From the NCBI GenBank assembly GCA_964612595.1, contig CAZTFB010000003.1, forward strand, positions 98,272 to 149,340: a stretch of 51,069 nucleotides of DNA, in the 5' to 3' direction. A program made the position numbers and the translations under genes. Position 1 is the first letter of the stretch. Every line of letters begins with the position of its first letter. Positions 156 through 51,069 of this stretch are shown in pieces. Below the pieces are notes generated by a model. It was not told the DNA's origin, did not search any database, and worked only from the letters and a program-made list of their open reading frames with translations. This stretch comes from an uncultured Gammaproteobacteria bacterium (GTDB taxonomy: Bacteria > Patescibacteriota > Microgenomatia > UBA1406 > HO2-37-13b).

Positions 156-3151
156 TGAAAATAGCATCACGCATAAACAGACAGAGAGGTGAAGTTGCCT
201 CATTTTTAACCATTGTCTCAATGGTTGTTCTTTCTTTTGGTATTCTTCTTGGTTATCAGTTAAACAGAAATGCAGCACCAATAAATCCAGCTCCCCAAGC
301 AGCTGCTCCCGCTCCATCAAAACCAATTCCTGCGGACGGCGTCGATAGACACGACGAGGTATGTTTTCCTGGTGGCGATAAGAATCAACAAGTACGTGAC
401 AAATATTGCCGAACACGAATGTATCCCAATCGCATAATGAGAGACGTCATTGAAAAAGCTGATGTTCGAGCGAAGCAGGTATTTGAATCAATTTTTAAGT
501 CAACCACCGATCAATCCGTGCGCAATCCTCATCTTTTATCTATAACAAGTGATGATAAGCGTACCCTGATGATTTATGGTGGCTTATGTCTGAATCGTAG
601 CTCACTTAGTGGAAGCGAGCGACTCTCAACTGATGATGTGGAAGTATATATAAGTTTATTTGGTGTACGAAAATATTATGATGATAAAGGTGCTGTTGGC
701 ATCGTCAGCAATGATAAGAATGATGCATTAAAGTACAAAATCGCCGCAGCTGAAGACAAAGCTGGCTCAAACAATACCGATGAACTTTTCGTTGCAAAAG
801 CTCGAGTGGGAGTTTGTACCTTTACAAACGGAAGAGTTGATGTTACTGACTATAAAAATGTCGACAACCCATTGTTGTTTAATATTCAAACAACGAAAGC
901 CAGCATTGAAAGCGCAATCGCACGTGCGGAAAAGGATCCTACACTTAACCAAAAATTCGATAAAAAAGCCTGTGAAGTCTACATTCACCTTAGAGATAAT
1001 ATTACTGTAGGCACAAACAACAAACCCAAAGACACATATAATATATTTAAGATTGATTTGCGTGAATATCTTGGTGACGAAGCTGCTACGATTTGTGATC
1101 CATCAACGACGCCCACACCAACAATAAGTGAGTCTCCTACTCCCACTTCCCCTACTGTAACCATTTCAACCTCACCAACACCAACAGATGAGGAGCGCAG
1201 ACTAGCTTCACCAACACCACAAACAGCCCAATGTTTCGAAAAATGTATTCCAACTACTCAATGTGGAGCAGATCCTTTGACTGGTAAAGCAATGTCCTGT
1301 TTTAACGCTACAAATCTTAATGTTTTGCCACCAATCTTACCAACAGGTGGGCAGGTTGATAACAATATTGATAATCCTTCCAACAGCCTCAAGTTATGCC
1401 AGAAAGGTGATCTCAACTGTCTTTGTCTACCACAAAGATGCCAGTTTAATCCAGAATCATGCACTAATAAATCAGATGCGTGTGAAAAAAATGATGTGCC
1501 AACGCCACTAATAACAAAAATACCTAATGAAACACCAACAGTCCCCACATCGACTCCTCCTATATCAGCCTGTGTCTTTGATGCGCTTGCCTATGTACAG
1601 GAGTGTGCTAGTATCGATCCAAAAACAGGTCAGTGTAAAAAGGATTCCACGGGTCGTTTCATAGCTAAACCAATAGAGAAAGGGGTTCTCACTACATCGT
1701 GGGGTGCAAGCAATAACAAACAGATTGCCGGAGGGCGATATGGCAGCAATCCAGCTACGCCATTTTCATTCATACAAAATAGTCAAGTCCCTGGCGCCTT
1801 TGATAATATAATAAGGCGATTCCCCTACTATAAAGATGCTTCCCTCGCATCTTTAACATATCTTGATTATCATGCAGAATTTCCTATGCCAGCAGGACGC
1901 AATCCACTTGAAGTTGGTTCGCCTGCGGACTTTACGCCAGAGGGCAGATCAAAGAATCCAATACTTATCGCACCCATTAATCAATATCCAGATGAACAGT
2001 ACTTTAACAGAGAAGATGCGCAGGTAAGATTGTATGCAGATTTTGCAAACAAAGGATACAGAGTTGTTCCTGATGGTAACAGAATTGACTATTGTAACAA
2101 TATTCATGATCTGACCGGTGTATATGGATTAGATTGCAATGAGATAGAATTTGAGGCGAATAGAGTTAATCCTAATGTTGATCCAGCTACGAGGGATCCA
2201 CGCGACACAATTGCAGGTCTTACTGTAGGGTGCGGTCAATCAATCGTATACGGTTGGACTCTTCAAAAATGTAATCCCGAACCAGCGGACTATCTTTTTG
2301 TCATAGATGTATCAACATCCATGTCAACCGGTAAAGATCTTTCTGGTGAAGTTAAGCTCGATGCAGCTAAAAAGTCACTCCTTTCATTCATAGATACAGT
2401 ACAAAAGTATAGTAAAGACAGCAGAGCTGCACTTATACAGTTTAGTTCACCAGACAATACGCGAACAGTTAAAGGATTTACGCCTGATCTAGAAAGTGTA
2501 AAGGCCGCTGTCAATTCAAATCTTACGGTTAAACAAGGCACCTGTATCGAGCATGGCATGCAGGAAACCATAAGCTTGATTCAAAGCAACGCCTCATCTA
2601 ACAGAAAAACATATGTGATTTTCCTAACCGATGGACTTCCCAACTGTCCTGATGGAACTCCAAGTCAGGAAAGCATTGCTAGAATTGGTGTGCATGGTAC
2701 TACTTTACGCGGGATGGCAAATGTTACTACGTACAGTATTGGCTATGGAGATCCTAACAAGGAAGGTGTTGGAGCAGACGTAGAACTCTTTAATGTAATC
2801 AAGCTTATAGCTAAGAGTGAAAATCATGCGTTCTCAACAAGCAGAGACGTGGCCATCGGCGACATTTATAAGACTATAGAAACTGAGTTAAATGCTTGTG
2901 CACGCTCCGAAGCAGCATTTGCAAACTACATAACTTCCCAGGATATAAATGGCGATGGCGTCATCAATACCATAGATCTCTTCCTTATATATGATAATTA
3001 CTTTGCACGCGGCCAGAATCTTCCAGAAGATCTTAATGGCGATCAAATTGTTAACTCACTTGATGTGTCGATAATCGTCAACAACATGGGTAAAGTAGTC
3101 CCCCAGGAAAATAATACTGCTCAAAAATCTATTGGTGACGTCTTCAATTAA
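155..3151 (+). CDS. large surface protein: signal-anchor, PT linkers, conserved Cys-bracketed module, vWA/MIDAS domain, C-terminal dockerin pair
   Basis: 998-aa ORF. N-terminal RQRGEVASFLTIVSMVVLSFGILLG hydrophobic segment. PT-rich linkers. FVIDVSTSMS (about 2297-2326) is a DxSxS MIDAS motif, followed by FLTDGLPN. The C-terminus has DINGDGVINTIDL and DLNGDQIVNSLDV (about 2942-3070), two dockerin-type Ca-binding segments. Confidence 0.85.
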   Translation: MKIASRINRQRGEVASFLTIVSMVVLSFGILLGYQLNRNAAPINPAPQAAAPAPSKPIPADGVDRHDEVCFPGGDKNQQVRDKYCRTRMYPNRIMRDVIEKADVRAKQVFESIFKSTTDQSVRNPHLLSITSDDKRTLMIYGGLCLNRSSLSGSERLSTDDVEVYISLFGVRKYYDDKGAVGIVSNDKNDALKYKIAAAEDKAGSNNTDELFVAKARVGVCTFTNGRVDVTDYKNVDNPLLFNIQTTKASIESAIARAEKDPTLNQKFDKKACEVYIHLRDNITVGTNNKPKDTYNIFKIDLREYLGDEAATICDPSTTPTPTISESPTPTSPTVTISTSPTPTDEERRLASPTPQTAQCFEKCIPTTQCGADPLTGKAMSCFNATNLNVLPPILPTGGQVDNNIDNPSNSLKLCQKGDLNCLCLPQRCQFNPESCTNKSDACEKNDVPTPLITKIPNETPTVPTSTPPISACVFDALAYVQECASIDPKTGQCKKDSTGRFIAKPIEKGVLTTSWGASNNKQIAGGRYGSNPATPFSFIQNSQVPGAFDNIIRRFPYYKDASLASLTYLDYHAEFPMPAGRNPLEVGSPADFTPEGRSKNPILIAPINQYPDEQYFNREDAQVRLYADFANKGYRVVPDGNRIDYCNNIHDLTGVYGLDCNEIEFEANRVNPNVDPATRDPRDTIAGLTVGCGQSIVYGWTLQKCNPEPADYLFVIDVSTSMSTGKDLSGEVKLDAAKKSLLSFIDTVQKYSKDSRAALIQFSSPDNTRTVKGFTPDLESVKAAVNSNLTVKQGTCIEHGMQETISLIQSNASSNRKTYVIFLTDGLPNCPDGTPSQESIARIGVHGTTLRGMANVTTYSIGYGDPNKEGVGADVELFNVIKLIAKSENHAFSTSRDVAIGDIYKTIETELNACARSEAAFANYITSQDINGDGVINTIDLFLIYDNYFARGQNLPEDLNGDQIVNSLDVSIIVNNMGKVVPQENNTAQKSIGDVFN

Positions 3152-3166
3152 GCCTCGTATTTTCTC

Positions 3167-3196
3167 TTGACAAACATCTTTAAAACCACGTACAAT
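3167..3196 (+). promoter_or_regulatory. sigma70-type promoter (TTGACA-18 nt-TACAAT) driving a leaderless cohesin-like gene
   Basis: TTGACA at 3167-3172, 18-nt spacer, TACAAT at 3191-3196, ATG at 3204 seven nt downstream. The architecture and the CTTGACAAACA string match the promoter at 12241. Confidence 0.6.
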
Positions 3197-3203
3197 GTTT
3201 CAC

Positions 3204-3749
3204 ATGGATCAATCTAAAACTCTTCAACCTAATAAGAATATAGCCCTCATTGGAATAGTATTTTTTGTATTTGCAGTAAGTCTTATTATGGGACTTATCT
3301 TTGCACAGAAGAAATCCTCACCTACGAATAATAATGCAGAGGAAAATCAGCTTGGCTCAACTCAGCTTATGCTAAAGCCCCAAGTAACCTCACTTCAGAA
3401 AGGTGAAAGTACACAAGTAATGGTTGAGATTGCCGGATCCCCCTCTCAAGCGGCAGATATTGTCATTACCTTCGATCCAAAGCTTCTCAGAGCCTCGGAC
3501 ATAGTAAATGGCGATGTTTTCCCCGACTTACTACGCAGCGAAATAAAAGAGAACCAGCTTATTGTATCCTCAGCCGTCGACCCAAACAATCCTACCAATC
3601 TTAAAACAGGAGTCATATTCAGCTTTACAGTTACTGCAATGGAATCTGGATCAGCTGCACTTGAATTTAATAAAGATCTTACGATTACTGCGCATAGTGG
3701 TACTAACACACTTGGGTCTGCCGAACCAGTTACCATATCCGTAAAATAA
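3204..3749 (+). CDS. membrane-anchored single-cohesin-like protein
   Basis: The ORF track starts at 3195, but that ATG lies inside the -10 box, so ATG 3204 is favoured. One N-terminal TM helix ([21 protein letters not shown]). Cohesin-like signature [20 protein letters not shown] ... [20 protein letters not shown] resembles clostridial cohesins (F-x-YDP-x-x-L ... G-x-F). Confidence 0.75.
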
Positions 3750-3769
3750 AGTAGACGTTAGATGAAACT

Positions 3770-6268
3770 ATGAATATATTTAAAAGAAAAAATCGCCATC
3801 AAAGAGGTGAAGTTGCTTCGTTATTGACCATAGTGTCTATGCTTGTTATTACGGCAGGTATTATTATTGGCACAAACTTCAGTCAATCCTCTCGATCGAT
3901 CAATACTGCCCCTCTTGCTGCAGGTGGCCCAACACCTATAGATCTGGGGTACACAGGCGGGAGATGGTTCGACGGTTCACAAGGTTTGATCTGTGCCGCA
4001 GAATTTACCTGTAATGCTGATCCTATTATTCAAGTACTTGAAATTCGATCTCTTGACGGAACTCAGAAATTTAGCTTAGCCACCGATGCAACAGGTCGTG
4101 GTATTCCAGACGGTTCCCCTATCGGCAAGTCAATAACCGGATCGTGTAGCAACAGATCGTACGGTATTTCTGTAAACTGGGATCCACGAATTGAATACAC
4201 AGATGCGCAAAAAAGAAACATAAAAAGATCGACGGGCTATGATATAAAGAAAGGCCAAATACTATTAAGCGTTCGTCAATCAGCGACAGAACAACGATAC
4301 TTTGTATATGATAGACCTACGTGGCTTACGGGTGGCGAAGATGCAATTTTTTACTTTGAATTTGATGCTAAAACAGCTGGTATTACACGAAGATATTCAC
4401 AGATTGCCAAAGGTAAAAAAGGGTGTGCTCCAGAAATTACTGCTACTGTCACACCAACAACTCCATTGTCTGGAACGCCATCACCAACACCTACAAGCAT
4501 CACATCACCAACACCTTCACCAACCGGAACATTGACGTCAACTCCAATACCATCAGCAACACCAACTGGTACAGCAACATCAACACCTACGTCGACCCTT
4601 ACACCAACACCAAGTTGTGGAGGTCCAACCTGCCCTCCACCAACAAATACGCCAACACCAACACCAAGTTGTGGAGGTCCAACCTGCCCTCCACCAACAA
4701 ATACGCCAACACCAATTGTCGGAAATGCATGTAACTATAACGCCCTCGTATACATCCAAGAATGTACGCCAAACGCTAAAGGTGAATGCGAACGCGACAC
4801 AAAAGGCAACTTCATCGCACGCGCACTACCTGCTTCGGAGCTTGCTAAATTTGGCACTATTAATAATAGGCAACTTGCGGGTGGACGTTATGGATCAGAA
4901 CCCGCTTCACGATTTAGCCTATTCACAGGCAATCCAACCGAAGCAACCAGTATTATCAGCACCTTCCCCTACTTTAGTGGCATTCTGGGATCCCAACTTG
5001 CATACTTTAGGTATGATGTGTCACAACCAGTTCCTGCAGGTGTAGACCCACTGAAAAGGACAACGGGAACCACAGGTATATTTATACCTCCTACATTCAC
5101 ACACCCTAATGAACGCTATCCGAACATGGAAACTGCAAGCGTGCGTCTTACATTAAAAAGACCAGACTATAGAATTGTTCCTAGGGGTAATGAAACAAAG
5201 TATTGTAGAAACAATATTTCCGGTGGTTTTATCGGAGCATGTGACCCATCTGCTTACTCCTATCCTGTAGACAACTCTGTCGATCTATCTAAAAGAGATC
5301 CTCGAGATACCATTAACGGTCTTATCGTCGGCTGTGGGCAAAACATAGTGTATGGATGGACAGTGCAAAAATGTGTATCTAACTTTGACTATGTTTTTGT
5401 CATGGATACCTCTACTTCAATGATAACGACCAGAGACATTACAACAGGCAAACTCAAGAAGGACGCAGCAAGCGATGCATTGCAAAACTTCCTCACAAAT
5501 ATTAAAAATTCTGGAGGTGATCATCGAGCATCACTCCTACAATTCAGTAGCAGAAGAAATACTCGCACTGTCGTCCCCTTTACTAATAATATAGATACCG
5601 TAAAAGCTGCTGCTCTAAATGATTTAAAGTATGAAGAAGGAACATGTATTGAGTGTGGTATTCGCGAAACCATTAACCTCCTTACGAATTTCAGAGCTGA
5701 TAAATCTAGAAACGTAGTAGTGGTATTCCTTACAGATGGCTTACCAAATAGTGATCCAGGAAATCCACGTGCAGGTGGCTACGAAGGCGAAATCACGACA
5801 GAGGCTAACAGACTAAAAGCGATGAATATAGCTGCAACTGGATCCACTCCACCAACTGTCATTGCAATCGGCTATGGCAACCCTGTTGCCGCCTCAAACC
5901 CTGATCCACGAGAGTTAGGTACTGCTGAACTTACTCGCGTGATCAAACTTATATCCACTGATGACACATGGGCATTTTCAACAGCTGCTAACATAAGTAT
6001 TAGTGAGGTATTTAGACGTGTAGAGAGTAGTCTTAACTCTTGTTCAAAATCAGAGGCTCTTCATGCAGCATTCATGAAGGCAAAGGATATTAATGGTGAC
6101 GGAATTATTAACACCGTTGATCTCTTCGCGCTGTACGATACTTACTTCCAACAAGGACAAGGACTTTCGGGTGATTTGAACGACGATGGTGTCATTAATT
6201 CGCTCGATGTTTCCCTCATGATTGGTGATCTGGGTACAGTAGTGAGTCCAGAGCTCGAATCACAATGA
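3770..6268 (+). CDS. large surface protein, paralog of 155..3151: signal-anchor, PT/Cys linker, conserved module, vWA/MIDAS, dockerin pair
   Basis: 832-aa ORF. The N-terminus HQRGEVASLLTIVSMLVITAGIIIG is nearly identical to the 155 ORF. Also has FVMDTSTSM MIDAS, FLTDGLPN, and C-terminal DINGDGIINTVDL ... DLNDDGVINSLDV. Confidence 0.85.
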   Translation: MNIFKRKNRHQRGEVASLLTIVSMLVITAGIIIGTNFSQSSRSINTAPLAAGGPTPIDLGYTGGRWFDGSQGLICAAEFTCNADPIIQVLEIRSLDGTQKFSLATDATGRGIPDGSPIGKSITGSCSNRSYGISVNWDPRIEYTDAQKRNIKRSTGYDIKKGQILLSVRQSATEQRYFVYDRPTWLTGGEDAIFYFEFDAKTAGITRRYSQIAKGKKGCAPEITATVTPTTPLSGTPSPTPTSITSPTPSPTGTLTSTPIPSATPTGTATSTPTSTLTPTPSCGGPTCPPPTNTPTPTPSCGGPTCPPPTNTPTPIVGNACNYNALVYIQECTPNAKGECERDTKGNFIARALPASELAKFGTINNRQLAGGRYGSEPASRFSLFTGNPTEATSIISTFPYFSGILGSQLAYFRYDVSQPVPAGVDPLKRTTGTTGIFIPPTFTHPNERYPNMETASVRLTLKRPDYRIVPRGNETKYCRNNISGGFIGACDPSAYSYPVDNSVDLSKRDPRDTINGLIVGCGQNIVYGWTVQKCVSNFDYVFVMDTSTSMITTRDITTGKLKKDAASDALQNFLTNIKNSGGDHRASLLQFSSRRNTRTVVPFTNNIDTVKAAALNDLKYEEGTCIECGIRETINLLTNFRADKSRNVVVVFLTDGLPNSDPGNPRAGGYEGEITTEANRLKAMNIAATGSTPPTVIAIGYGNPVAASNPDPRELGTAELTRVIKLISTDDTWAFSTAANISISEVFRRVESSLNSCSKSEALHAAFMKAKDINGDGIINTVDLFALYDTYFQQGQGLSGDLNDDGVINSLDVSLMIGDLGTVVSPELESQ
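4601..4708 (+). repeat. perfect tandem duplication, 2 x 54 bp, inside the linker of the 3770 ORF
   Basis: 4601-4654 and 4655-4708 are identical (acaccaacaccaagttgtggaggtccaacctgccctccaccaacaaatacgcca). They encode TPTPSCGGPTCPPPTNTP twice. Confidence 0.9.
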
Positions 6269-7059
6269 AACAATTAGTGCTTGTATCAAGTGCCCTTTTT
6301 CTTGCTTTCGGTATTGTGCTTGGCACACTCTTTCTTCAGTCCGATAAACCTCTCGCTCTCCTTTCAGAAGCAAAAGTTACCACACCACCTTACTGCCCTA
6401 TTAATCTCACTCTTTATGTACATGAAATTAATAAAAACGGTGAAGAGGTTCCCCTTACTATCGAATCTAATCTAGACATCGATGTCTTACAATGGAGTAT
6501 TACTGATGGACAAAACCTTATTTCTCAACCACTTTACTTTAACCAAATTCCGCGAATGGAATATATTCTAAGATCCGATACCCTAACATTTGCATCTTCA
6601 CCCCTTACACAAGACATATATCAAAAAGGTGATGAGACGTTTCTTACGTTAAACTACCAGAATGAATTGTTCAACATTGTTAAACAAGAAATCGCAACAT
6701 GTAGTTCACCCAATAAACCTGAACTTTGTTCTACACTCGGTTCAAATGAAGATGCTGCTTTTCCAACAACTGCACTAGATACCATAAATGGCATTACACT
6801 AGATTGTAATATGCAACTTGAAGCAGGATGGGTCGTACAACGACGACCTTCCGACATAAACCAATCGTCACAGTCAGCAGCGCCATCGACTACTGAATGT
6901 GACTTAAACAATGATGGTACCTGTAATACATTTGACCTATTTATTGTGTTGGATAATTATGGAAAAAATGGGTTAGACCTTCCTGGAGATGTAAATGGAG
7001 ATAATAAAGTAAATGCGCTTGACTATACACTCATGACAAGCAGGATTTCTCTCTTGTAA
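6265..7059 (+). CDS. secreted/anchored protein with C-terminal dockerin pair
   Basis: 264-aa ORF whose start overlaps the previous stop (ATGA). Has an N-terminal TM helix. C-terminus is CDLNNDGTCNTFDLFIVLDNYG ... DVNGDNKVNALDYTLM. Carries the tail of the conserved module (DTINGITLDCNMQLEAGWVVQRR). Confidence 0.75.
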   Translation: MKQLVLVSSALFLAFGIVLGTLFLQSDKPLALLSEAKVTTPPYCPINLTLYVHEINKNGEEVPLTIESNLDIDVLQWSITDGQNLISQPLYFNQIPRMEYILRSDTLTFASSPLTQDIYQKGDETFLTLNYQNELFNIVKQEIATCSSPNKPELCSTLGSNEDAAFPTTALDTINGITLDCNMQLEAGWVVQRRPSDINQSSQSAAPSTTECDLNNDGTCNTFDLFIVLDNYGKNGLDLPGDVNGDNKVNALDYTLMTSRISLL

Positions 7060-7088
7060 TATTGCCTTATCTTATCTAGAATGATCGT

Positions 7089-8774
7089 ATGTACGTCGTA
7101 AAGACTGCTCATATTTTTATAGTATTATTCCTACTTTCCCTGCTCGGTACGGGCTCTGTGGCCTACGGACAATCCAAGCCTGAGATTACCTATGTAAGAA
7201 ACGCCGATATTGGCTTCACTATTTCAAATATTACACCCTCACGTCAATGGGACTATATTCTATATTCTGATTTTTGTTTTAGCGCAAATCCCCCTTCAAA
7301 CGCCAGCGCCTCGGTTCAAGTAACTATGGATCTTAAAGACACCTCAAACCCCTCTCTAGAGAAAGAGGAGGTTATCGGTGCTGCTGTAAACCAGCTCATT
7401 ACAAACCCCGCAACAACTCGTTGTGGCTCTAGTAGGCTCCGCCGATTAACTGCGAATGCACCCTTTAATATTCCTCCTCGTGACAGATGGACTGAAAGTT
7501 GTCCAAGAATAAAGGTTAAAGTTATTACAAAGGGGCCATGGAGACCATTCCCTCAAGAAGACGTGGCCTACATCGAAAGAAGTTTCTTATGCCCTGATGG
7601 TGTTGTCGAAGATCCTGATCCTACTGCCACAACATCACCAAGCAGACCGACGGGAAGTGCTGGTCCAACACGTATCCCCTTTCGACCTCGACCAACATCT
7701 GTACCAACAAGCTCACCTACCCCTGAGCCTAATGCTATTGAAGGTCGTATCACTGTTTTCTCTTGTGCACAGCCAGAAAATGTTACCTTAAGTTATTGTG
7801 ATGATCCAAGTGGTTCAAGCTGTAGCGATATTAACCTATCGCCTACAAAACAAGATCAAGCGATATGGCTCGACGACGAGACGAATGAGCGCACATTTAT
7901 ATATAGATATCGCATAACGAAAGATAAAGCAGGAAATGAGCTCGACACGAGCAAGAAATACACTATATATAACGCAAACGCGCGCATAAAGAGATTTAAG
8001 GATGCAACCATAGAGTCATTCCCTTCACTCAAAGAAGACAAGAAAGAAGTTTCAGTGCCTGGTACACATGATCTTTCTGTGTATGCGGCCGCCCAAACTT
8101 GTGCATGTGTCTTTCATGCACGAGCTCATGTACGTGATGCAGATACGGGAGAAATTACCACCGCTCTTGATGAAGCCCTCGTTCCAGGCAAAGACTTAAC
8201 TTTCGGCAGCGCGAATGATATGCAAATAATTTCAAGAGGTGACAAACCTGTGAGCCCCTTTACAAATGGAATATTAGATGTTTTAGAAAGTCTTCATGAC
8301 ATAAATTACAGCAACACGGTCGGCCCATGGACACCGTACGGCATTGATGGCATGGCACACGTTCGTCTTTATGCACCAGGCTACAGTGTTGTTAAACAGC
8401 GCTGCCAAACAACTGCCCAAAGCCAGGTTCATGCCTGCCCAGGGGGCTCACTCGAAAGAGAGTCAACCTTTACTGATGACCATAACTTTGTGGGTTTCAG
8501 AGTTGCCTGCGGCGTTGATGTATCGTACGACTGGTATATAAGAAAAAATGCAGGGACCGCTGATGTAGCAGTCATGCGTGTGACCAAACCAGAAGATGTT
8601 GACATAAATAATGATGGATTTATAAATACTGCCGATCTTGTTGCTTGTATAGATGAATGGGGTACAGAATCAGGGTCCTATACTTGTGATATAAATAAGG
8701 ATAAAGCAGTAGATGCACTTGATTTATCACTCGTTACCAGTTTGCAAGGCGTAGACGTTAATGAAGCTCAATAA
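7089..8774 (+). CDS. secreted protein with conserved N-terminal domain, PT linker, Cys-bracketed module and dockerin pair
   Basis: 561-aa ORF with a signal peptide (…GTGSVAYGQ). The N-terminal domain is paralogous to the 12883 ORF (RQWDYILYSDFCFSANPPSN vs NRWDYMLSGGLCFTNNPPSN). C-terminus is DINNDGFINTADL ... DINKDKAVDALDLSLV. Confidence 0.8.
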   Translation: MYVVKTAHIFIVLFLLSLLGTGSVAYGQSKPEITYVRNADIGFTISNITPSRQWDYILYSDFCFSANPPSNASASVQVTMDLKDTSNPSLEKEEVIGAAVNQLITNPATTRCGSSRLRRLTANAPFNIPPRDRWTESCPRIKVKVITKGPWRPFPQEDVAYIERSFLCPDGVVEDPDPTATTSPSRPTGSAGPTRIPFRPRPTSVPTSSPTPEPNAIEGRITVFSCAQPENVTLSYCDDPSGSSCSDINLSPTKQDQAIWLDDETNERTFIYRYRITKDKAGNELDTSKKYTIYNANARIKRFKDATIESFPSLKEDKKEVSVPGTHDLSVYAAAQTCACVFHARAHVRDADTGEITTALDEALVPGKDLTFGSANDMQIISRGDKPVSPFTNGILDVLESLHDINYSNTVGPWTPYGIDGMAHVRLYAPGYSVVKQRCQTTAQSQVHACPGGSLERESTFTDDHNFVGFRVACGVDVSYDWYIRKNAGTADVAVMRVTKPEDVDINNDGFINTADLVACIDEWGTESGSYTCDINKDKAVDALDLSLVTSLQGVDVNEAQ

Positions 8775-41970: not shown

Positions 41971-41995
41971 GACCAGGTCCTGTCAGGTTCGCGCC
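41968..41995 (+). repeat. REP-like element copy 3 (left flank of the RAYT gene)
   Basis: taggaccaggtcctgtcaggttcgcgcc, one mismatch to the consensus. Its TAG is the aclA stop codon. The RAYT stop (TGA, minus strand, 41983-41985) lies inside it. Confidence 0.85.
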
Positions 41996-42561
41996 TTTTT
42001 TAGCCAAGGTATTTTTCCGTTCAATCCTTTCGCACTTGACCAGGGATACTCCTTTGGCGCATTTTGATAGCTCTTTAAACTTGCCGGATTCTCGTGAATG
42101 TAGCCTGTCACAATCTGAAAATACGCTTCGTTTTTTACAATAATTGCTTTATACCTACCCTGAAATAGGTGGCCAACATACTTATATTTGAGCGAGTAGT
42201 ACATAGAATATCTAGTAAGTAACGACTTCATAAATCTCTGCATACTTGTAATTCTCGATTGTTCAAGTAGAAAGTGAAAATGATTTGGCATCAAACAATA
42301 TGCATATAAGCATATCTCTTCAGCGTAATTCTTTATACGAGAAGCTCTGGTTATCAAGCGTTGAAGTTGTTGCGAATTATACCCATTATTAGATAAGTAT
42401 GACAGAAGCTGACTTGATGGAATTAAATACAACATCATACACTCAGTAAAATATCGATAGTCATCAGGAGAATGGAAAATCACTGCTTTATTTACTCCCC
42501 TATTGAAAACGTGATAGATTCCGCCAGCAACGTATTGTTTCCTCTCGTGTTTTGGGGGCAT
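41983..42561 (-). mobile_element. IS200-like Y1 (HUH) transposase of the REP-associated tyrosine transposase (RAYT) type
   Basis: 192-aa ORF. GIYHVFNRGVNKAVIF, the HUH motif in CLMPNHFHFLLE, and the catalytic Tyr region GHLFQGRYKAIIV. It is flanked by inverted REP copies 3 and 4, the classical REP-RAYT arrangement. Confidence 0.8.
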
Positions 42562-46792: not shown

Positions 46793-47371
46793 TTTCATCA
46801 CTTCCTCATCTGTTCTGCGGTAGCTGTAGATGTCGTCAATATTAAACCAGAGACCAACCTCAAATGCCGCTTCTTCCACATTGCCCGATGCGTGGATAAG
46901 ATTTTTTATTGGGCGGTTACCATTGTTGGCAAGTGCTGATGAATCGAACGAGTAATCACCTCGAATAGTACCCATCTCTGCTTTAAGTGGAAGCGTATGC
47001 CCTACCATCTTACGTACGAGCTCAACTGCATGTGGGCCTTCAAGGACCATAGCGAACACAGGGCCAGAAGAGATAAAATCAACAAGCCATCCTTGAATTA
47101 CCTTACCAATTTCCATTGGGTCGTCGGTGCCGAGTTCTTTTTTTGCGTCTTTTCCTAGAGCTTCGTAGTTCTCAAGGGTTTTTTTACCCATGCCTTCAAT
47201 GAACTCCGTTCTATCGAGTGGATAGTGTTTATTTGCGAGTTCTTTGGTGACGAGCATCATGCGTGCAGCGACCAATTTGAGACCTACCTTTTCAAAGCGT
47301 CCAATGACTTCGCCAATTAAGCCGCGGGCTACCGCATCATGTTTGAGTACGACCAATGTTTGTTCTTTCAT
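46790..47371 (-). CDS. ndk: nucleoside diphosphate kinase (long form with an internal insertion)
   Basis: 193-aa ORF. Has EQTLVVLKHDAVARGLIGEVIGRFEKVGLKLVAARMM, GPVFAMVLEG, TIRGDY and NLIHASGNVEEA (active-site His). Confidence 0.8.
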   Translation of the reverse strand: MKEQTLVVLKHDAVARGLIGEVIGRFEKVGLKLVAARMMLVTKELANKHYPLDRTEFIEGMGKKTLENYEALGKDAKKELGTDDPMEIGKVIQGWLVDFISSGPVFAMVLEGPHAVELVRKMVGHTLPLKAEMGTIRGDYSFDSSALANNGNRPIKNLIHASGNVEEAAFEVGLWFNIDDIYSYRRTDEEVMK

Positions 47372-47527
47372 ATAGGGCTATATTAACTGGAATGAAGGAA
47401 TTTTGCAACTATGGTTTTATGGTTAACTTGTATACAATGAATAGGAGAATAGCAACAATGAGGAATAGGGCTAATCCTATGTTCGCTAAATTATTTGCTT
47501 TAATGAGTTCTTCGCTTTGTTTTTGGT

Positions 47528-47710
47528 TTAAGAGTGCCATTGTAAGAATATTGCAAAAACTAGTAACGATATGGCGCCCACAAAATTTGTTGTTACTGTA
47601 CGTATTTTGCTTCTAAAACTAACAAAAGTCAACCGTGGGACGATGAATATTGCACTGAACCACGTTGCAGAAAGGTTAATCAAGAAATCGGAAAGTATTA
47701 TGAATACCAT
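47528..47710 (-). CDS. small hydrophobic protein (hypothetical)
   Basis: 60-aa ORF with two hydrophobic stretches. On the minus strand TAAAAT (47717-47722) sits 6 nt before the ATG, the same leaderless layout as other host genes. It competes with an overlapping plus-strand ORF (47356..47616), judged less likely. Confidence 0.35.
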   Translation of the reverse strand: MVFIILSDFLINLSATWFSAIFIVPRLTFVSFRSKIRTVTTNFVGAISLLVFAIFLQWHS

Positions 47711-47775
47711 GGGAGTATTTTAGGAAATGAAGATTAAGAAATTGTTAGAAAGTTGGCGTAGAAGGAGTTGAAAAT

Positions 47776-47877
47776 ATGGCACAAAAAAACCGCCTCAGTA
47801 AGCTGTTTACTACTGGACTAGCAGATCTTCGCTGTCCAACCCCTGTCCTTGTCGGACAGAAAGTTCTATTCGTATAG
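47776..47877 (+). CDS. candidate 33-aa small ORF with canonical SD (uncertain; may instead be part of a structured RNA)
   Basis: GAAGGAG (47761-47767) lies 8 nt before ATG 47776. Reads MAQKNRLSKLFTTGLADLRCPTPVLVGQKVLFV*. It lies almost entirely within a long inverted repeat (arms about 47783-47815 and 47876-47904). Confidence 0.25.
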   Translation: MAQKNRLSKLFTTGLADLRCPTPVLVGQKVLFV

Positions 47878-47949
47878 TAATAAACAGCCTATCAAGGCGG
47901 TTATCCAGCTGTATTTGGGCTCTTGCTGCGCAAATACAGCTGGACTCAT
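47866..47949 (-). CDS. candidate 27-aa small ORF behind the conserved AAGGAG-CTGAG-ATG start module
   Basis: The minus strand reads gaaAAGGAGctgagATG AGT CCA ..., giving MSPAVFAQQEPKYSWITALIGCLLLYE*. The C-terminal half is hydrophobic. It overlaps the convergent 47776 ORF by 12 nt. Confidence 0.3.
   Translation of the reverse strand: MSPAVFAQQEPKYSWITALIGCLLLYE
47905..47943. repeat. second copy of the CCAGCTGTATTTG/CAAATACAGCTGG hairpin
   Basis: The 13-bp stem is identical to that at 35832-35872. The 13-nt loops are related when the copy at 47905 is read on the minus strand (GCAGGTAGCGC vs GCAGCAAGAGC on the minus strand). Confidence 0.8.
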
Positions 47950-48021
47950 CTCAGCTCCTTTTCTATGTAAAGAAGCTTAGAAGAGCGCCCCTGGTGATGA
48001 GCCAGGGGCTATCTCTGATGA
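47945..48021 (-). repeat. island intergenic module, copy A (hairpin GCCCCTGG-7 nt-CCAGGGGC plus SD/ATG box)
   Basis: ctcatctcagctccttttctatgtaaagaagcttagaagagcgcccctggtgatgagccaggggctatctctgatga. The left part matches copy B almost base for base. The right part (tatctctgatga) matches copy C. Confidence 0.85.
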
Positions 48022-48355
48022 CAGCAGACAATTTCAGGAGTCTACTCGTTCCTGAATCCTTTTGAATGTAGGATTAAACTGAGCAGTTGTTAACCATGCT
48101 CAGGGTTTTGCTAATTGTTCTTTCATCTCAGCTTTTTCGCCTTGATGTTGCACAACCACAATCAGCAAAGGTTATGCCAAGCCTTTTTGGGAGCTCACCC
48201 CCTGTTAGCTGACCAAAGGCTAACGTGGCTCTATCCGCAAGAGCATCGCGGGAATGGCTTTTCACTGTTGCCTTCGTACCATTCCTTGTCTGTTTTTAAC
48301 GTCCGCGGCAACTCGGACGGATGACAGGCGGATCGCGGATTCGCATTACGACCTC

Positions 48356-48793
48356 CTAGAAGTTATCTATGCCAACCCCGCCCGTTGAACGGGCGAGTTT
48401 GACAAGCACCGGATTTGACACCTCCATGGCAAAGCCATGGACCCGGGTTCCCGGGATCTCCGACGGCTTCAGCGCCGCAATGGAGGTGTCTTCGTCAGTA
48501 AGAACTACGATTTCAGGCCGGTAGAGCGCATCTCCAGCCTTGATCGCGTCCTCGATGTACTTATGGGCCGCACGGACTGCGGCCGCGATGTCCGTGCCGC
48601 CACCCGAGAAGTTCCCGTCTGCGAACTTTTTGATGAGTTCGCGGGCTTCTTCGGGGGTAGAGGCACGGTGGACAGTGCTGAGATTTGTGTCGAAGACCGA
48701 CACGAAAACCTCAGCATCACCGTCTAAGACGGCCTTGAGGCGGTTCAACACCTGCGAGCCGCCCACGACTGTCCTGCTGAAACCTGAGGACAC
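48356..48793 (-). CDS. vWA-domain protein, 5' end unresolved (possibly truncated or frameshifted)
   Basis: High GC3 frame. vWA pattern: FVSVFDT..., FSGGGTDIAAAV (MIDAS Thr loop), EIVVLTDEDT, VHGFAMEV, LARSTGGVGI. The first in-frame canonical start after the upstream gene's stop is GTG 48793, which would remove beta-strand 1 (KLAAYHVSSGFS). The ORF-track ATG 48937 lies in a low-GC3 frame overlapping the upstream gene by 101 nt. Confidence 0.5.
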   Translation of the reverse strand: MSSGFSRTVVGGSQVLNRLKAVLDGDAEVFVSVFDTNLSTVHRASTPEEARELIKKFADGNFSGGGTDIAAAVRAAHKYIEDAIKAGDALYRPEIVVLTDEDTSIAALKPSEIPGTRVHGFAMEVSNPVLVKLARSTGGVGIDNF

Positions 48794-48836
48794 GTGGTAT
48801 GCCGCGAGCTTTTTATTTTTTTTGGTGAGAGCTACC

Positions 48837-49328
48837 TCACCATGGACACTCGGTCGTCTCCGTGCCCGGGATCGCGGGCTCGCTGCCCCACACGAGGGCG
48901 TGCGAGCTCCAAAACGCGACGCTGTTGGGCGTCGCATTCCAATCCCAGGGCTCGGGTTCGGCCTTGTGCCCGATGAAAGCGGTGACGAGGACGTAGGCCC
49001 CCATCGCCGCCTCCGCGCCGTCGGCTATCTTGAGGATGACCACGACGGTCGAGCAAGGCTCGGGTTGGCGGTTCTTGACGAACCGTGTCAACCCGAACCT
49101 TTTGGGCCGCTGTGCGTATACGATCTGGTCGCCGGGCCCCGTGGCGACACAGACCGTCTCGCCGATTTGCCGACCGAAGTCGACCTCTTCGACGAGAAAT
49201 GCCCTGCCTCCAACGTCTATCTGCGCCAGTGCGGCTGGCAGGATTGCCGCGACTGACGCATGAAGGTGGGAGTTGTACCGGTCGAAGACCGGCTCTCCCC
49301 CCTTCAACGTGCCGATTTGATTCCCCAT
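48837..49328 (-). CDS. hypothetical protein (GC-rich island)
   Basis: 163-aa ORF with very high third-position GC. It has a strong SD: AGGAGG, 4 nt, then ATG (ttaAGGAGGtgtcATG). No family recognised. Confidence 0.65.
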   Translation of the reverse strand: MGNQIGTLKGGEPVFDRYNSHLHASVAAILPAALAQIDVGGRAFLVEEVDFGRQIGETVCVATGPGDQIVYAQRPKRFGLTRFVKNRQPEPCSTVVVILKIADGAEAAMGAYVLVTAFIGHKAEPEPWDWNATPNSVAFWSSHALVWGSEPAIPGTETTECPW

Positions 49329-49428
49329 GACACCTCCTTAAGGTTGTGAGGGGTTTATTACGGCGACAAAAGTAACGACTAAAATCTTAGTAATTACATC
49401 TGCCGCCGCAAAAAATCGGCTAATAATG

Positions 49429-49512
49429 TTAAATAACTTCCGTTCGGTTTATGGATTGATTACCATATTCCTGCTTGTCAATGTTCAGAGTTAAAGCCAC
49501 GCTTTCACTCAT
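49429..49512 (-). CDS. candidate 27-aa small ORF behind the conserved AAGGAG-CTGAG-ATG start module
   Basis: The minus strand reads gaaAAGGAGctgagATG AGT GAA ..., giving MSESVALTLNIDKQEYGNQSINRTEVI*. It lies in an AT-rich spacer between GC-rich genes. Confidence 0.35.
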   Translation of the reverse strand: MSESVALTLNIDKQEYGNQSINRTEVI

Positions 49513-49630
49513 CTCAGCTCCTTTTCAATGTAAAGAAGCTTAGAAGAGTGCCCCTGGTGATGAACCAGGGGCCTCCCCGATGTTTTACGTCATACGGGTG
49601 TTGACGGAGGATGGTCAGTCGTCCTCGTCC
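49508..49630 (-). repeat. island intergenic module, copy B (full length: acidic-tail codons, stop, CGTCA hairpin, GCCCCTGG hairpin, SD/ATG box)
   Basis: Shares ccgatgttttacgtca[tc]acgggtgttgacggaggatggt[ct]agtc with copy C. Shares ctcatctcagctcctttt...gaagag[ct]gcccctggtgatga with copy A. Confidence 0.85.
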
Positions 49631-49977
49631 GCCTGCTGGTGATTTGGCCCTTGCTGAGTGTGGCGTTGTTCTGCCTCAATCCTGCGGAGCCAGTTCTGGT
49701 GCCTCGTTCGCATACGTGTCGCCACGGCGTCGACAATTTCGTCCTTGTCGACGCCATTGTTCACGCCCATTTGAAGGGTCACCTCCTCATTCAGACGGGA
49801 GATGATTCTCATTGCGGTGTCACAACTGCCGGTGGCGAAGAGTACCTCGCGCCACTCTTTGCCATCTTCTTCAACGTGCCTCCTCACCACCTCAAAACGA
49901 GGTGGCCAGCCTCTCAAGCTGAGGAGGCGGTCCGTCAGCGTGATATTGAACAATTGGCAGAATTCATCGTTTCTCAC
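49615..49977 (-). CDS. hypothetical protein with acidic C-terminal tail (GC-rich island)
   Basis: 120-aa ORF with a GTG start preceded by AAAGGAG and a 7-nt spacer. Ends ...QQADEDD*. No family recognised. Confidence 0.6.
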   Translation of the reverse strand: MRNDEFCQLFNITLTDRLLSLRGWPPRFEVVRRHVEEDGKEWREVLFATGSCDTAMRIISRLNEEVTLQMGVNNGVDKDEIVDAVATRMRTRHQNWLRRIEAEQRHTQQGPNHQQADEDD

Positions 49978-50175
49978 CTTGTTACTCCTTTAGGTGTGAG
50001 CTTAGCTCATAGGCGGGTAAGGTTTTTGCTCTCTCGCGAGAGACATTGTGGGTACAAAAAACATGCAAAGTCGTCTTAGTACTCACAATGCCTCCCGTAA
50101 GGAGAACAACCAAATCCTGTCTAAAAAGTACACGGAGCAAAATTACTCCTCACAGCGCTTGATAATCTCAAGCGC

Positions 50176-50277
50176 TTTGAAGAGTGCCCCTGGTGATGAG
50201 TCAGGGGCTATCTCTGATGATTCCCGATGTTTTACGTCACACGGGTGTTGACGGAGGATGGTTAGTCCTCGTCGTCC
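50176..50277 (-). repeat. island intergenic module, copy C (acidic-tail codons, stop, CGTCA hairpin, GCCCCTGA/TCAGGGGC hairpin)
   Basis: tttgaagagtgcccctggtgatgagtcaggggctatctctgatgattcccgatgttttacgtcacacgggtgttgacggaggatggttagtcctcgtcgtc. Confidence 0.85.
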
Positions 50278-50996
50278 AGCGGGTTGAGGCTGCCGCAGAA
50301 CTCGTCGTCATGCGGGTCGTAGACCCGCTTGGCGACGACCGCGTCGTCGACCGTGTCGTCGACATCGTCGCCCTGCCCGCCCTTTTTCTCGTTTCGGCTC
50401 CGCCACGCGGCGGAGCCGAAGTTGTGCTCCGCTTCCCACTCGAACGAGTGGGGCTGGAGCACACGCTCCGCGCCGCTCCACACCCGGAGGGCATTGAACT
50501 CAATGCCCTGGATGTGGTCGCTCTGTCCCTCGATGACAATGAGGGACCTTTGCACCTGCGCCCGCAGCCGCAGGCCAACCACCGCAGCGGCCGCGGTGGA
50601 TTGGTTTGAATGTGCGTGGTGTTGACCACGCACAAGACTCACTGACGTGCGAGGCGGGAGGATTCGAACCTCCCAGCCCCCCTCCTTGAGGGGGCGTAGC
50701 GCCCCCTTCTTCATCCAGGGAAACCCCTGGATGGCGACGACGGTGCCCTCGAAGGCACCGTTGCCGACTACCTCCACCTGGCCTGCGCTGCTGCGGGCCT
50801 TGTAGCCCGCAGTGCTGACCAGCACCGGGGCGTCGGTATACCAGCCCGAAAAGGGCTGGCCGACGACCATGTTCACGAGGGGCCCGATTTCCGCGCCGTA
50901 GCGCAGAATCAGGCCCCCCTCGCTGTCCACGGTCACGTTGACCGTGGACAGCATGAGGACACGAGAGTACGTATCCACAAAGTACGCAGTGGTCAT
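50262..50996 (-). CDS. hypothetical protein with acidic C-terminal tail; the central part is an atypical, highly structured, tRNA-like segment
   Basis: 244-aa ORF with high GC3 at both ends (MTTAYFVDTYSRV... and ...DPHDDEFCGSLNPLDDED*). GC3 drops across about 50600-50670. An SD-like AAAGG lies 8 nt before the ATG. Confidence 0.5.
   Translation of the reverse strand: MTTAYFVDTYSRVLMLSTVNVTVDSEGGLILRYGAEIGPLVNMVVGQPFSGWYTDAPVLVSTAGYKARSSAGQVEVVGNGAFEGTVVAIQGFPWMKKGALRPLKEGGWEVRILPPRTSVSLVRGQHHAHSNQSTAAAAVVGLRLRAQVQRSLIVIEGQSDHIQGIEFNALRVWSGAERVLQPHSFEWEAEHNFGSAAWRSRNEKKGGQGDDVDDTVDDAVVAKRVYDPHDDEFCGSLNPLDDED
50648..50694 (-). other. tRNA-like 3' fragment (anticodon-arm-like hairpin, T arm, acceptor 3' strand), not a complete tRNA
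   Basis: The minus strand reads CCCCC-TCAAGGA-GGGGG GCTG GGAGG-TTCGAAT-CCTCC CGCCTCG CA. The T loop is a perfect GTTCGAATC consensus. No matching 5' acceptor strand or D arm lies upstream, and position 33 would be C. Confidence 0.4.
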
Positions 50997-51069
50997 CGCT
51001 TCTACCTTTCATGCTACTCCACCAGACCATCTGGTGAAGGTCCCCTTTCGGGAGACACTGTGAGAACGA

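Follow-up and report, generated by a model that had tools for sequence, protein, structure and literature searches.

Background

In T4-type phages, promoter-early stem-loop (PeSL) cassettes, present in about 50 copies, lead from a stop codon through a stable stem-loop to a Shine-Dalgarno (SD) sequence and a start codon (PMC2839356, PMC4122927). In hairpin-cluster intrinsic terminators, 2-4 hairpins less than 15 nt apart start within 80 nt of the stop codon, and a U-tract is not obligatory (PMC8355165); MoxR-vWA ternary conflict systems have been described as well (PMC7159879). Here we analyze three composite intergenic modules, denoted A, B and C, in a 51,069-nt stretch of contig CAZTFB010000003.1 (positions 98,272 to 149,340; hereafter the window) that belongs to an uncultured member of the Patescibacteria, or Candidate Phyla Radiation (CPR). 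The modules are located, on the minus strand, within a GC-rich island at the end of the window that encodes ORF244, ORF120, ORF163 and the remnant of a vWA gene. We estimate at roughly 50% the probability that they are transcribed punctuation spacers (for processing or for termination) of hyper-structured mRNAs, with chains of hairpins that start in the last codons of the upstream gene.

A mosaic of repeated blocks in the spacers of the island

Modules A, B and C had been recognized in an initial annotation from the sequence alone, and repeat and pattern analysis recovers all three, far beyond chance. They contribute to one family of 66-nt repeats with three copies (47944-48009; 49507-49572, 95%; 50143-50208, 65%) and to another of 55-nt repeats with two copies (49576-49630 and 50223-50277; 93%). 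The central hairpin of the modules, GCCCCTGG-TGATGAR-YCAGGGGC, has three occurrences at no more than one mismatch, against a shuffle expectation of 0.00, and is confined to the island, with no other copy in the 51 kb. Its distal arm had been read as (C/T)CAGGGGC; in fact, all three copies are CCAGGGGC, so that the hairpin can be written GCCCCTGG-N7-CCAGGGGC.

When the four island spacers are compared pairwise, these repeats resolve into a mosaic of blocks. Block a (tail codons, stop codon and CCATCCTCCGTCAACACCCGTRTGACGTAAAACATCGGG) is found in modules B and C, block b (TCATCAGAGATA) is common to A and C, block c (the central hairpin, HP2 below, followed by RCTCTTCWAAGC) is present in all three, and block d (a putative start box) in A and B. 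Block e, of 48 nt, lies upstream of ORF120 (50082-50130) and again upstream of ORF244, past the window end (L011:275-322); blocks b and e had previously been overlooked. The boundaries of the copies vary by pair (a-c-d, b-c-d and a-b-c), and the two flanks of HP2 assort independently of each other. Identity among copies of the shared blocks is 93-97%, in contrast to the genes that they enclose, which are unrelated; ORF244 and ORF120, in particular, show no relationship to each other, yet both have block e upstream and block a downstream. This mosaic among spacers that flank unrelated genes supports the proposal, made in the initial annotation, that structured modular intergenic elements were spread by recombination.

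The same annotation looked to further copies for support. Blocks a-d occur in none of the other 47.9 kb of the window, the related CPR loci or the public collections scanned (for exact matches), and the only additional finds are block e and a shared leader described below. In blastn comparisons of the modules with the related loci and the rest of the window, no further copies were detected; viral contigs, scanned for exact occurrences of HP2 and of blocks a, d and e, contained none; and both HP2+CTCTTC and the shared leader were unmatched in Joint Genome Institute (JGI) metagenome contigs. A genome-collection scan with the exact 23-nt HP2 (GCCCCTGNNTCATCACCAGGGGC) found one copy in each of 10 unrelated genomes (L001-L010), 6 of them Chloroflexota, where about 0.3 would be expected at random. 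All 10 matches are intergenic and lack flank similarity, and they look like ordinary stand-alone terminator-type hairpins.

Chains of hairpins in the modules

The expectation that the modules fold as RNA is borne out: the copies have z-scores of -6.2, -5.0 and -3.5 relative to shuffled sequences, and each is predicted to form a chain of adjacent hairpins, which we label HP0 to HP3 in the 5' to 3' direction of the minus strand (Table 1). In the predicted fold, HP0 is formed by the acidic tail codons GACGAGGA and by UCCUCCGUC, which contains the CCATCCTCC box, and the stop codon is placed in the loop; this pairing explains both the shared "acidic tail" of the upstream genes and the CCATCCTCC box. 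HP1 is the CGTCA/TGACG stem noticed previously or, alternatively, a CCCG...CGGG stem. HP2, a GC-rich 8-7-8 palindrome stem (-12.6 to -17.4 kcal/mol) with the 3' flank RCUCUUCWAAGC, is directly followed by HP3 (-16.8 to -25.8 kcal/mol), of which ACUCUUCUAAGCUUCUUU is the 5' arm and AAAGGAGCUGAGAUGAGU, the "SD+ATG start box" of the initial annotation, the 3' arm. In copy C, HP3 occupies the same place and has the same outer stem and a different inner stem, which MAFFT misaligns. Among the 17 base pairs of HP3 compared between A/B and C, 5 are changed on both sides (compensatory), 2 on one side, and none is broken.

HP3 of copies A and B is predicted to be more stable in the sense than in the antisense orientation (about -17 vs about -12 kcal/mol), and the same holds for two longer hairpins located in the spacers (Table 1). 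One of these, the e-f hairpin, has a counterpart upstream of ORF244 that ends at 51050. The two spacers that are absent from the RNA contigs described below both have z = -7.1 in the sense orientation, compared to -5.8 and -5.5 in the antisense orientation; that they are structured and strand-biased argues for their transcription on the gene strand. In these folding models, the strand bias arises through G-U pairs, which points to RNA.

RNA units and their ends

The RNA data are Logan contigs from 14 transcriptome runs in 6 studies; these contigs show neither strand nor rare species. They fall in three discrete segments, T1, T2 and T3, with gaps between them (Table 1). The 3' end of T3 was found in 6 runs from 3 studies, 4-6 nt 5' of HP2 in module A. 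The ends of T2 are marked by junctions with Illumina adapters: the X37 contig reads adapter-49614...50028-adapter, in X38 the adapter abuts 49612, and in five more runs the ends are within 49612-49627 and 50027-50031. The 3' end of T2 is thus 1-3 nt past the TGA, inside the HP0 loop, and one run ends at 49595, the spot in module B that is equivalent to the end of T1. The 5' ends of all three units (51044-51048, 50027-50029 and 49353) lie 2-6 nt 3' of a 20-23-bp hairpin; for T2, this is the e-f hairpin, 4-5 nt away, and for T3, the hairpin at 49358-49411, 5 nt away. The orientation of the adapters is alike in both adapter-bearing studies, with P5 on the low-coordinate side.

The location of contig 3' ends at or in modules A, B and C agrees with the earlier prediction that RNA ends would be found there. 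The simple hairpin terminator that the same prediction envisaged is doubtful, given that the stable 3' ends are upstream of HP2 and HP3 and none is found after them. HP2, HP3, the two 27-codon ORFs of the initial annotation and the segments 49354-49611 and 50030-50241 had no RNA-contig cover in any run, though the neighboring genes were covered at word depth 10-40. For ndk, the host gene for nucleoside diphosphate kinase that adjoins the island, contig depth was zero in the four runs compared.

A second end of T1, at 50466-50471 inside ORF244, was seen in 3 runs and was joined to an adapter in one of them. This inner end coincides with the loss of homology between ORF244 and its 367-aa relative (at about residue 170-176), and a perfect 9-bp hairpin, GGGCATTGA-GT-TCAATGCCC, lies about 20 nt upstream of it. 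At the other end of T1, the leader (51015-51044/48, minus strand) is shared with a different sequence: in 2 metatranscriptomes, the contig diverges from it into TCCCCCAGGAGGGGGACAACATGAATAAGA, with a different SD and ATG. Thus, some genome in that sample has the leader 51015-51048 in front of another gene; the alternative junction was not seen in 8 DNA runs.

Table 1. Coordinates of the RNA units, modules, hairpins and candidate ORFs (positions in the window), and of structured clusters in other CPR genomes (positions in the respective loci)
Feature	Coordinates	Strand	Details
Hyper-structured GC-rich island	47601..51069	-	every 400-nt window z -5 to -16; rest of window near 0
RNA unit T1 (ORF244, 50262-50996)	50242..51048	-	5' end 51044-51048; 3' end 50242 in deepest run, 8 nt past HP0
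RNA unit T2 (ORF120, 49615-49977)	49612..50029	-	discrete molecule of ~415 nt, adapters at ends
RNA unit T3 (ORF163, vWA remnant and 340-nt tail)	48013..49353	-	5' end 49353; 3' end 48013/48015
Module C	50145..50277	-	HP0 50250-50277 (TAA 50262-50264 in loop); HP1 50223-50245; block b 50209-50220; HP2 50186-50208; HP3 50145-50185 (-25.8 kcal/mol)
Module B	49507..49629	-	HP0 49603-49629 (TGA 49615-49617 in loop); HP1 49576-49598; HP2 49550-49572; HP3 49507-49549
Module A	47944..48021	-	block b 48010-48021; HP2 47987-48009; HP3 47944-47986; without HP0 and HP1
Long e-f hairpin	50033..50101	-	3' half of block e and CACAATGTCTCTC arm; sense -31.1, antisense -22.8 kcal/mol
Long spacer (IG2) hairpin, 54 nt	49358..49411	-	sense -28.0, antisense -15.7 kcal/mol
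sORF-A, 27 codons	47866..47949	-	mostly a 15-bp hairpin (47904-47944, -33 kcal/mol); no gene call, no RNA-contig cover
sORF-B, 27 codons	49429..49512	-	unrelated to sORF-A; no gene call, no RNA-contig cover
"Fourth start box"	48123..48141	-	11-nt exact match AGCTGAGATGA, E ~0.3; opens only ~8 codons
Other structured clusters	L020 ~1500-8500; L022 6000-9200; L024 5600-9600; L026 4800-11000; L025 329-1432		DUF-bpMoxR-vWA and associated orphans

Base pairing throughout the island and in homologous clusters

The tendency to form RNA structure is not limited to the modules. In comparison with dinucleotide shuffles, T1 has a z-score of -19.95 (minimum free energy of -476 vs -352 ± 6 kcal/mol), the ORF163 unit -9.6, the segment 48013-48836 -9.2, and T2 -5.2. 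A scan with 400-nt windows delineates a single continuous block on the minus strand (Table 1), with the other 47.6 kb around 0; of the 8 island windows, 7 have a lower z-score on the minus than on the plus strand. Shuffling of synonymous codons, which preserves both the protein and the codon usage, leaves z-scores of -10.8 for ORF244, -9.9 for the vWA remnant, -6.7 for ORF163 and -2.9 for ORF120, whereas the values for the host controls ndk and mreB are +0.1 and -0.3. The vWA remnant is transcribed, with z = -11.6, despite the deletion that it has suffered. Such hyper-structure across the entire island, coding regions included, seems more remarkable than the modules themselves.

The homologous DUF, MoxR and vWA genes of 4 other CPR genomes and the homolog of ORF244 show the same trend (z of -3 to -13), with neighboring genes near 0. 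Overall, the structured clusters (Table 1) have fold z-scores of -3 to -20 with dinucleotide and -3 to -13 with synonymous-codon shuffling, and the sense strand is favored. In L024 and L026, the structured block consists of exactly a long 5' leader and the three genes, with the TrmB gene outside. Covariation supports the structure, the hairpins of the DUF gene being kept with compensatory changes. It was assessed for six DUF genes (about 70% nucleotide identity) using an RNAalifold structure derived from the same alignment: 87% of the cells are paired, compared to 32-50% with partners slid and 82.7 ± 0.5% with shuffling, and 25 pairs are changed on both sides, compared to 4-12 and 13.7 ± 2.3, respectively, none of the 500 shuffles reaching 25.

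Our literature searches did not uncover any account of hyper-structured coding regions in CPR bacteria. We tentatively propose, while putting the chance of being right at somewhat below even, that the modules are punctuation marks of a class of transcription units, for which we found no description, in which the whole RNA (leader, coding sequence and spacers) is selected for base pairing. If so, the "foreign-looking" high G+C content of these clusters would be a result of selection for RNA structure rather than a trace of a GC-rich donor. Such selection might serve to shield the RNA from RNases, to prolong the life of the mRNA or to control the release of a conflict system.

Two of the homologous loci have spacer repeats of their own. 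Four consecutive intergenic regions of L020 (2632, 4125, 5855 and 6548, plus strand) carry a motif that consists of ACTCGAA, a stem with covarying arms and a GCACA-containing loop, and CTTCGA. Further downstream is a GAGTGC-like segment, with complementarity to GCACTC; the motif has no Rfam match and is a candidate structured RNA. In L022 (5568-5648 and 9579-9618), three copies of a GCCACGT-TCT-ACGTGGC hairpin with a CCATCCTAC prefix are found on both sides of the DUF-MoxR-vWA operon.

Genes of the island and their relatives

The modules separate one intact gene, two truncated genes and one orphan. The intact gene, ORF163 (48837-49328, minus strand), belongs to a highly conserved CPR family, with 319 matches at 60-77% identity. 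Elsewhere in CPR, members of this family (a DUF of 155-163 aa) head an operon that continues with a bpMoxR AAA+ ATPase and a vWA protein and is located beside a divergent gene for a TrmB-type regulator. This partner protein matches no Pfam family, its only family match being phrog_23674 (unknown function), and although the AlphaFold2 model of the family is confident (pLDDT 95, pTM 0.84), it has no fold match in the PDB at E<0.25. No PADLOC or NCBIfam match was obtained for the island proteins.

Compared with the canonical operon, the island has lost the MoxR gene together with about 320 vWA codons, and what is left of vWA is a remnant (48356-48748) that corresponds to the last 131 aa of the vWA protein. 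After the stop codon of ORF163 comes an A-run (AAAAAAAATAAAAAG), to which these last 131 codons are directly joined (48750-48840). ORF244 is coding-like, with a G+C content at third codon positions (GC3) of 0.83. Over residues 1-170, it has 41% identity to its only homolog, a 367-aa protein, and the two then diverge, indicating a replaced and truncated tail. ORF120 has no homolog among 5.8 billion proteins.

Within ORF244, codons at 50649-50700 (minus strand) form a tRNA-like T-arm, GGGAGG-UUCGAAU-CCUCCC, and the region 50649-50782 gives a weak tRNA-Sec-like Rfam match (23 bits, E 0.29). We rejected a tRNA remnant at this site: the match is one of a chain of perfect hairpins in the coding region, and the protein alignment to P0123 is unbroken there.

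The host genome and the surroundings of the island

The CPR host has a G+C content of 42%, and its contigs are known from sludge and bioreactor samples. The genes in the window encode, among others, dockerin/cohesin proteins, nucleoside diphosphate kinase (ndk), pyruvate:ferredoxin oxidoreductase (POR), MreB and a Y1 transposase with its own family of repetitive extragenic palindromes (REP); ndk, POR, mreB, an ATP-citrate-lyase-like gene and tRNAs are the cellular neighbors of the island. The island itself, from about 47600 to the window end, is 55-60% G+C and carries minus-strand genes. It is 100% identical across 9 contigs from different samples. Phage and viral collections contained no match to the island, and blastn against phage and plasmid collections was negative.

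All assemblies that reach past the window break at the same base, 349 nt beyond its end; this common break suggests that a repeat or variable region follows. These 349 nt (L011:1-349) contain a canonical terminator, AACCCGC-TCCG-GCGGGTTTTTTT, a second hairpin and then the second copy of block e. On the other side, between the island and ndk, an AT-rich stretch contains two small hydrophobic ORFs (60 and 43 aa; 47409-47710, minus strand) without RNA-contig cover.

Possible punctuation of hyper-structured mRNAs and alternative explanations

If the modules are punctuation spacers, the island would be transcribed through the spacers, and RNA ends would be formed, by cleavage or by termination with trimming, in the short unpaired linkers that adjoin the hairpins. 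The pieces that contain the hairpins would be lost or degraded, being too small or too short-lived to appear in contigs. The copies of the modules would have arisen and reassorted by recombination between spacers, so that genes that are unrelated, orphan or truncated came to lie between a common 5' block (e-f) and common 3' blocks (a, b, c and d). Such recombination is indicated jointly by the mosaic of blocks, by the 5' and 3' blocks that unrelated ORFs share, by the truncation of genes and by the second junction of the leader. With regard to the formation of the 3' ends, T1, which stops 8 nt past HP0, is as expected for arrest of an exonuclease at a helix, and so is T2, with its end 9 nt past a predicted terminal helix formed by the leader and the last codons; the end of T3, just 5' of HP2, does not conform to this.

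Several observations weigh against punctuation by the modules. The 3' ends differ from module to module (4-6 nt 5' of HP2, in the HP0 loop, or 8 nt 3' of HP0), so that no single mechanism is evident across A, B and C. The 5' and 3' flanks of the units do not pair with each other (duplex z 0.1 to 1.0), which excludes a processing stem between them of the kind that is found in rRNA. A consensus scan of 47300-51069 detected no promoter-like or classical terminator-like site in the modules, and no precursor that spans a spacer was observed among the Logan contigs, which cannot show rare RNA. That the RNAs are sense-oriented follows from the orientation of the adapters on the assumption of the common dUTP protocol. 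Finally, all three copies are in one island of one organism, and none was found elsewhere.

An explanation that we consider rather unlikely is that the modules have no specific punctuation role. The spacer hairpins would then be part of an island-wide selection for base pairing (for example, for shielding from single-strand-specific RNases), the copies would derive from recent local duplication or gene conversion, and the RNAs would end wherever nucleotides are unpaired. The hyper-structure of the whole of 47601-51069, coding sequences included, the occurrence of RNA ends in short single-stranded linkers at varying distances from hairpins and the unrelated spacer repeats of other CPR islands are all compatible with this possibility. 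However, the structure of HP3 is kept by compensatory change, all three 5' ends are 2-6 nt from a long hairpin, and it is the blocks that are 93-97% identical, with unrelated genes between them. The model of the initial annotation, in which a terminator or attenuator is combined with a functional SD-ATG start cassette for small leader ORFs and CCATCCTCC acts as an anti-SD, appears improbable to us. The start box CTCATCTCAGCTCCTTTTC (plus strand) is indeed present, exactly, at 47945 and 49508; A and B have an ATG at canonical spacing after AAGGAG; copy C has GAGGAG and then TTG, which opens a 52-codon ORF; and CCUCC is complementary to SD sequences. The start function is nevertheless not supported: the box forms the 3', purine-rich arm of HP3, a hairpin that sequesters both the SD and the ATG and that copy C keeps although it lacks the box. 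Likewise, both 27-codon ORFs exist, but they are unrelated, uncalled by any gene caller and uncovered by RNA contigs, and sORF-A is for the most part a single hairpin. The "fourth start box" either does not exceed chance or is a decayed remnant or half of HP3, and folding predicts that CCATCCTCC, rather than being a free anti-SD, is paired with the GACGAGGA tail codons. Most likely, both the start box and the small ORFs arise incidentally from the 3' arm of HP3, which is rich in purines.

Explanations at the DNA level are even less probable. If HP2 served a site-specific recombinase as its core site, like attC or dif, and the genes were mobile cassettes, one could account for a row of orphan and truncated genes in one orientation with a conserved palindrome between them, for the independent assortment of the HP2 flanks among the copies and for the common break of the assemblies 349 nt past the window end. 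We regard this as quite improbable given that the annotated part of the window (~4.7-51 kb) encodes no integrase or recombinase and its only transposase is the Y1 enzyme with a different REP sequence, that no R''/R' pair (RYYYAAC/GTTRRRY) frames the module, and that several local hairpins are found instead of one attC-like bulged hairpin; moreover, the G-U strand bias points to RNA, and the island is identical in 9 contigs, so no turnover of cassettes is seen. The least probable of the explanations that we considered, which would accord with the presence in this genome of a REP family with a Y1 transposase related to REP-associated tyrosine transposases (RAYT-like), is the threefold insertion of a small non-autonomous mobile element, such as a miniature inverted-repeat transposable element (MITE), a REP or a palindrome-associated transposable element (PATE). 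The modules share no sequence with that REP family, their boundaries vary by pair instead of defining a unit length with fixed ends and target duplications, and the other 47.9 kb contain no copy. Variable and template repeats of a diversity-generating retroelement (DGR) were rejected as well: only about 15 nt of coding sequence are common to the copies, and the annotated genes do not include a reverse transcriptase.

Implications

Taken alone, the modules are a small local repeat family that would exemplify, in a cellular CPR genome, the PeSL-like shuffling of regulatory spacers around unrelated genes. The wider interest of the locus is in a MoxR-vWA-type cluster that recurs across Patescibacteria, the codons of which appear to be arranged into conserved hairpins and which, in this host, yields discrete, sharp-ended RNAs while neighboring housekeeping genes are undetectable. 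If confirmed, this would be a testable case of strong selection for mRNA structure over whole operons, an alternative explanation of "GC-rich islands" in AT-rich genomes, and a way into the RNA decay and processing of organisms that are not yet culturable alone.

Comparison with known systems

The start-associated sequences (SAS) and stoperators of mycobacteriophages are asymmetric 13-bp sites, either bound by a protein (the phage repressor) or associated with translation (at the starts of real genes), with tens of copies in phage genomes. The modules resemble them as short conserved motifs repeated at gene boundaries, but are multi-hairpin elements of 80-130 nt, in three copies, in a cellular genome. 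REP and bacterial interspersed mosaic elements (BIME) are extragenic palindromes located near stop codons that can shape mRNA 3' ends; in contrast, the modules have another sequence, are not dispersed, and are mosaic rather than unit-length copies. The REP-like palindrome of this genome, GGACCAGGTCCTGTCAGG, is unrelated to the modules and is present in 5 copies (38959, 40412, 41970, 42619(-) and 43494; 0 expected), two of which, inverted, flank the Y1 (IS200/RAYT-type) transposase gene (41983-42561). Membership of the modules in a REP/RAYT system was rejected because the transposase is flanked by this different palindrome and the island hairpin is island-only.

An integron attC site can be dismissed on similar grounds: there is no integrase in the annotated ~4.7-51 kb, each module has 3-4 separate local hairpins, and no conserved GTTRRRY is found at the 3' edge; CGTCAAC, the only R''-like string in the module, is off the RYYYAAC consensus. 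A search with the Rfam 15 families gave nothing relevant at E<=1 in 47000-51069 and nothing at E<=0.1 in L011, L020, L022 and L024.

RNase III-type intercistronic sites are stems of roughly 20 bp in a polycistronic precursor; in T7 early mRNA, RNase III cuts inside a hairpin, which stays on the upstream mRNA. The modules have in common with these sites, and with rRNA spacers, conserved intercistronic hairpins and mature RNA ends located at hairpins; however, the stable RNAs of the island are without the main hairpins, no precursor was observed, and no duplex joins the 5' and 3' flanks. With the hairpin-cluster terminators, the modules share the number, spacing and position of the hairpins and the dispensability of a U-tract, but the stable 3' ends are 1-22 nt past the stop codon or 4-6 nt 5' of HP2, not downstream. 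A classical intrinsic terminator was rejected, with none found by the scan at the modules, no U-run after HP2 and no contig end 3' of HP2 or HP3.

At the level of gene content, the MoxR-vWA ternary systems are the relevant comparison. The CPR homologs of the island core genes form an operon of a small protein, bpMoxR and vWA next to a TrmB-type regulator, whereas the island itself lacks MoxR, its vWA is truncated, and the partner protein has no Pfam or PDB match and the system no PADLOC model match.

The modules are closest to the PeSL cassettes. Several features set the two apart: a scan of 47300-51069 detected in the modules no sigma-70-type promoter (-35/-10), which is the defining element of PeSL cassettes (by eye, the hexamers in HP2 and HP3 are poor), and the module SD-ATG does not open a real downstream gene; neither mini-circles nor indel polymorphism were seen; and the modules consist of several hairpins, number three copies and reside in a cellular CPR host, not in a T4-like phage. 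Nevertheless, the modules, like the PeSL cassettes, are composite stop-to-SD motifs with stable stem-loops. They are repeated beside ORFans in what may likewise be a plastic region, and their copies, as in the phages, may be exchange points between unrelated sequences. By this analogy, the modules would work like PeSL elements without belonging to the PeSL family, which is the closest described analogue.

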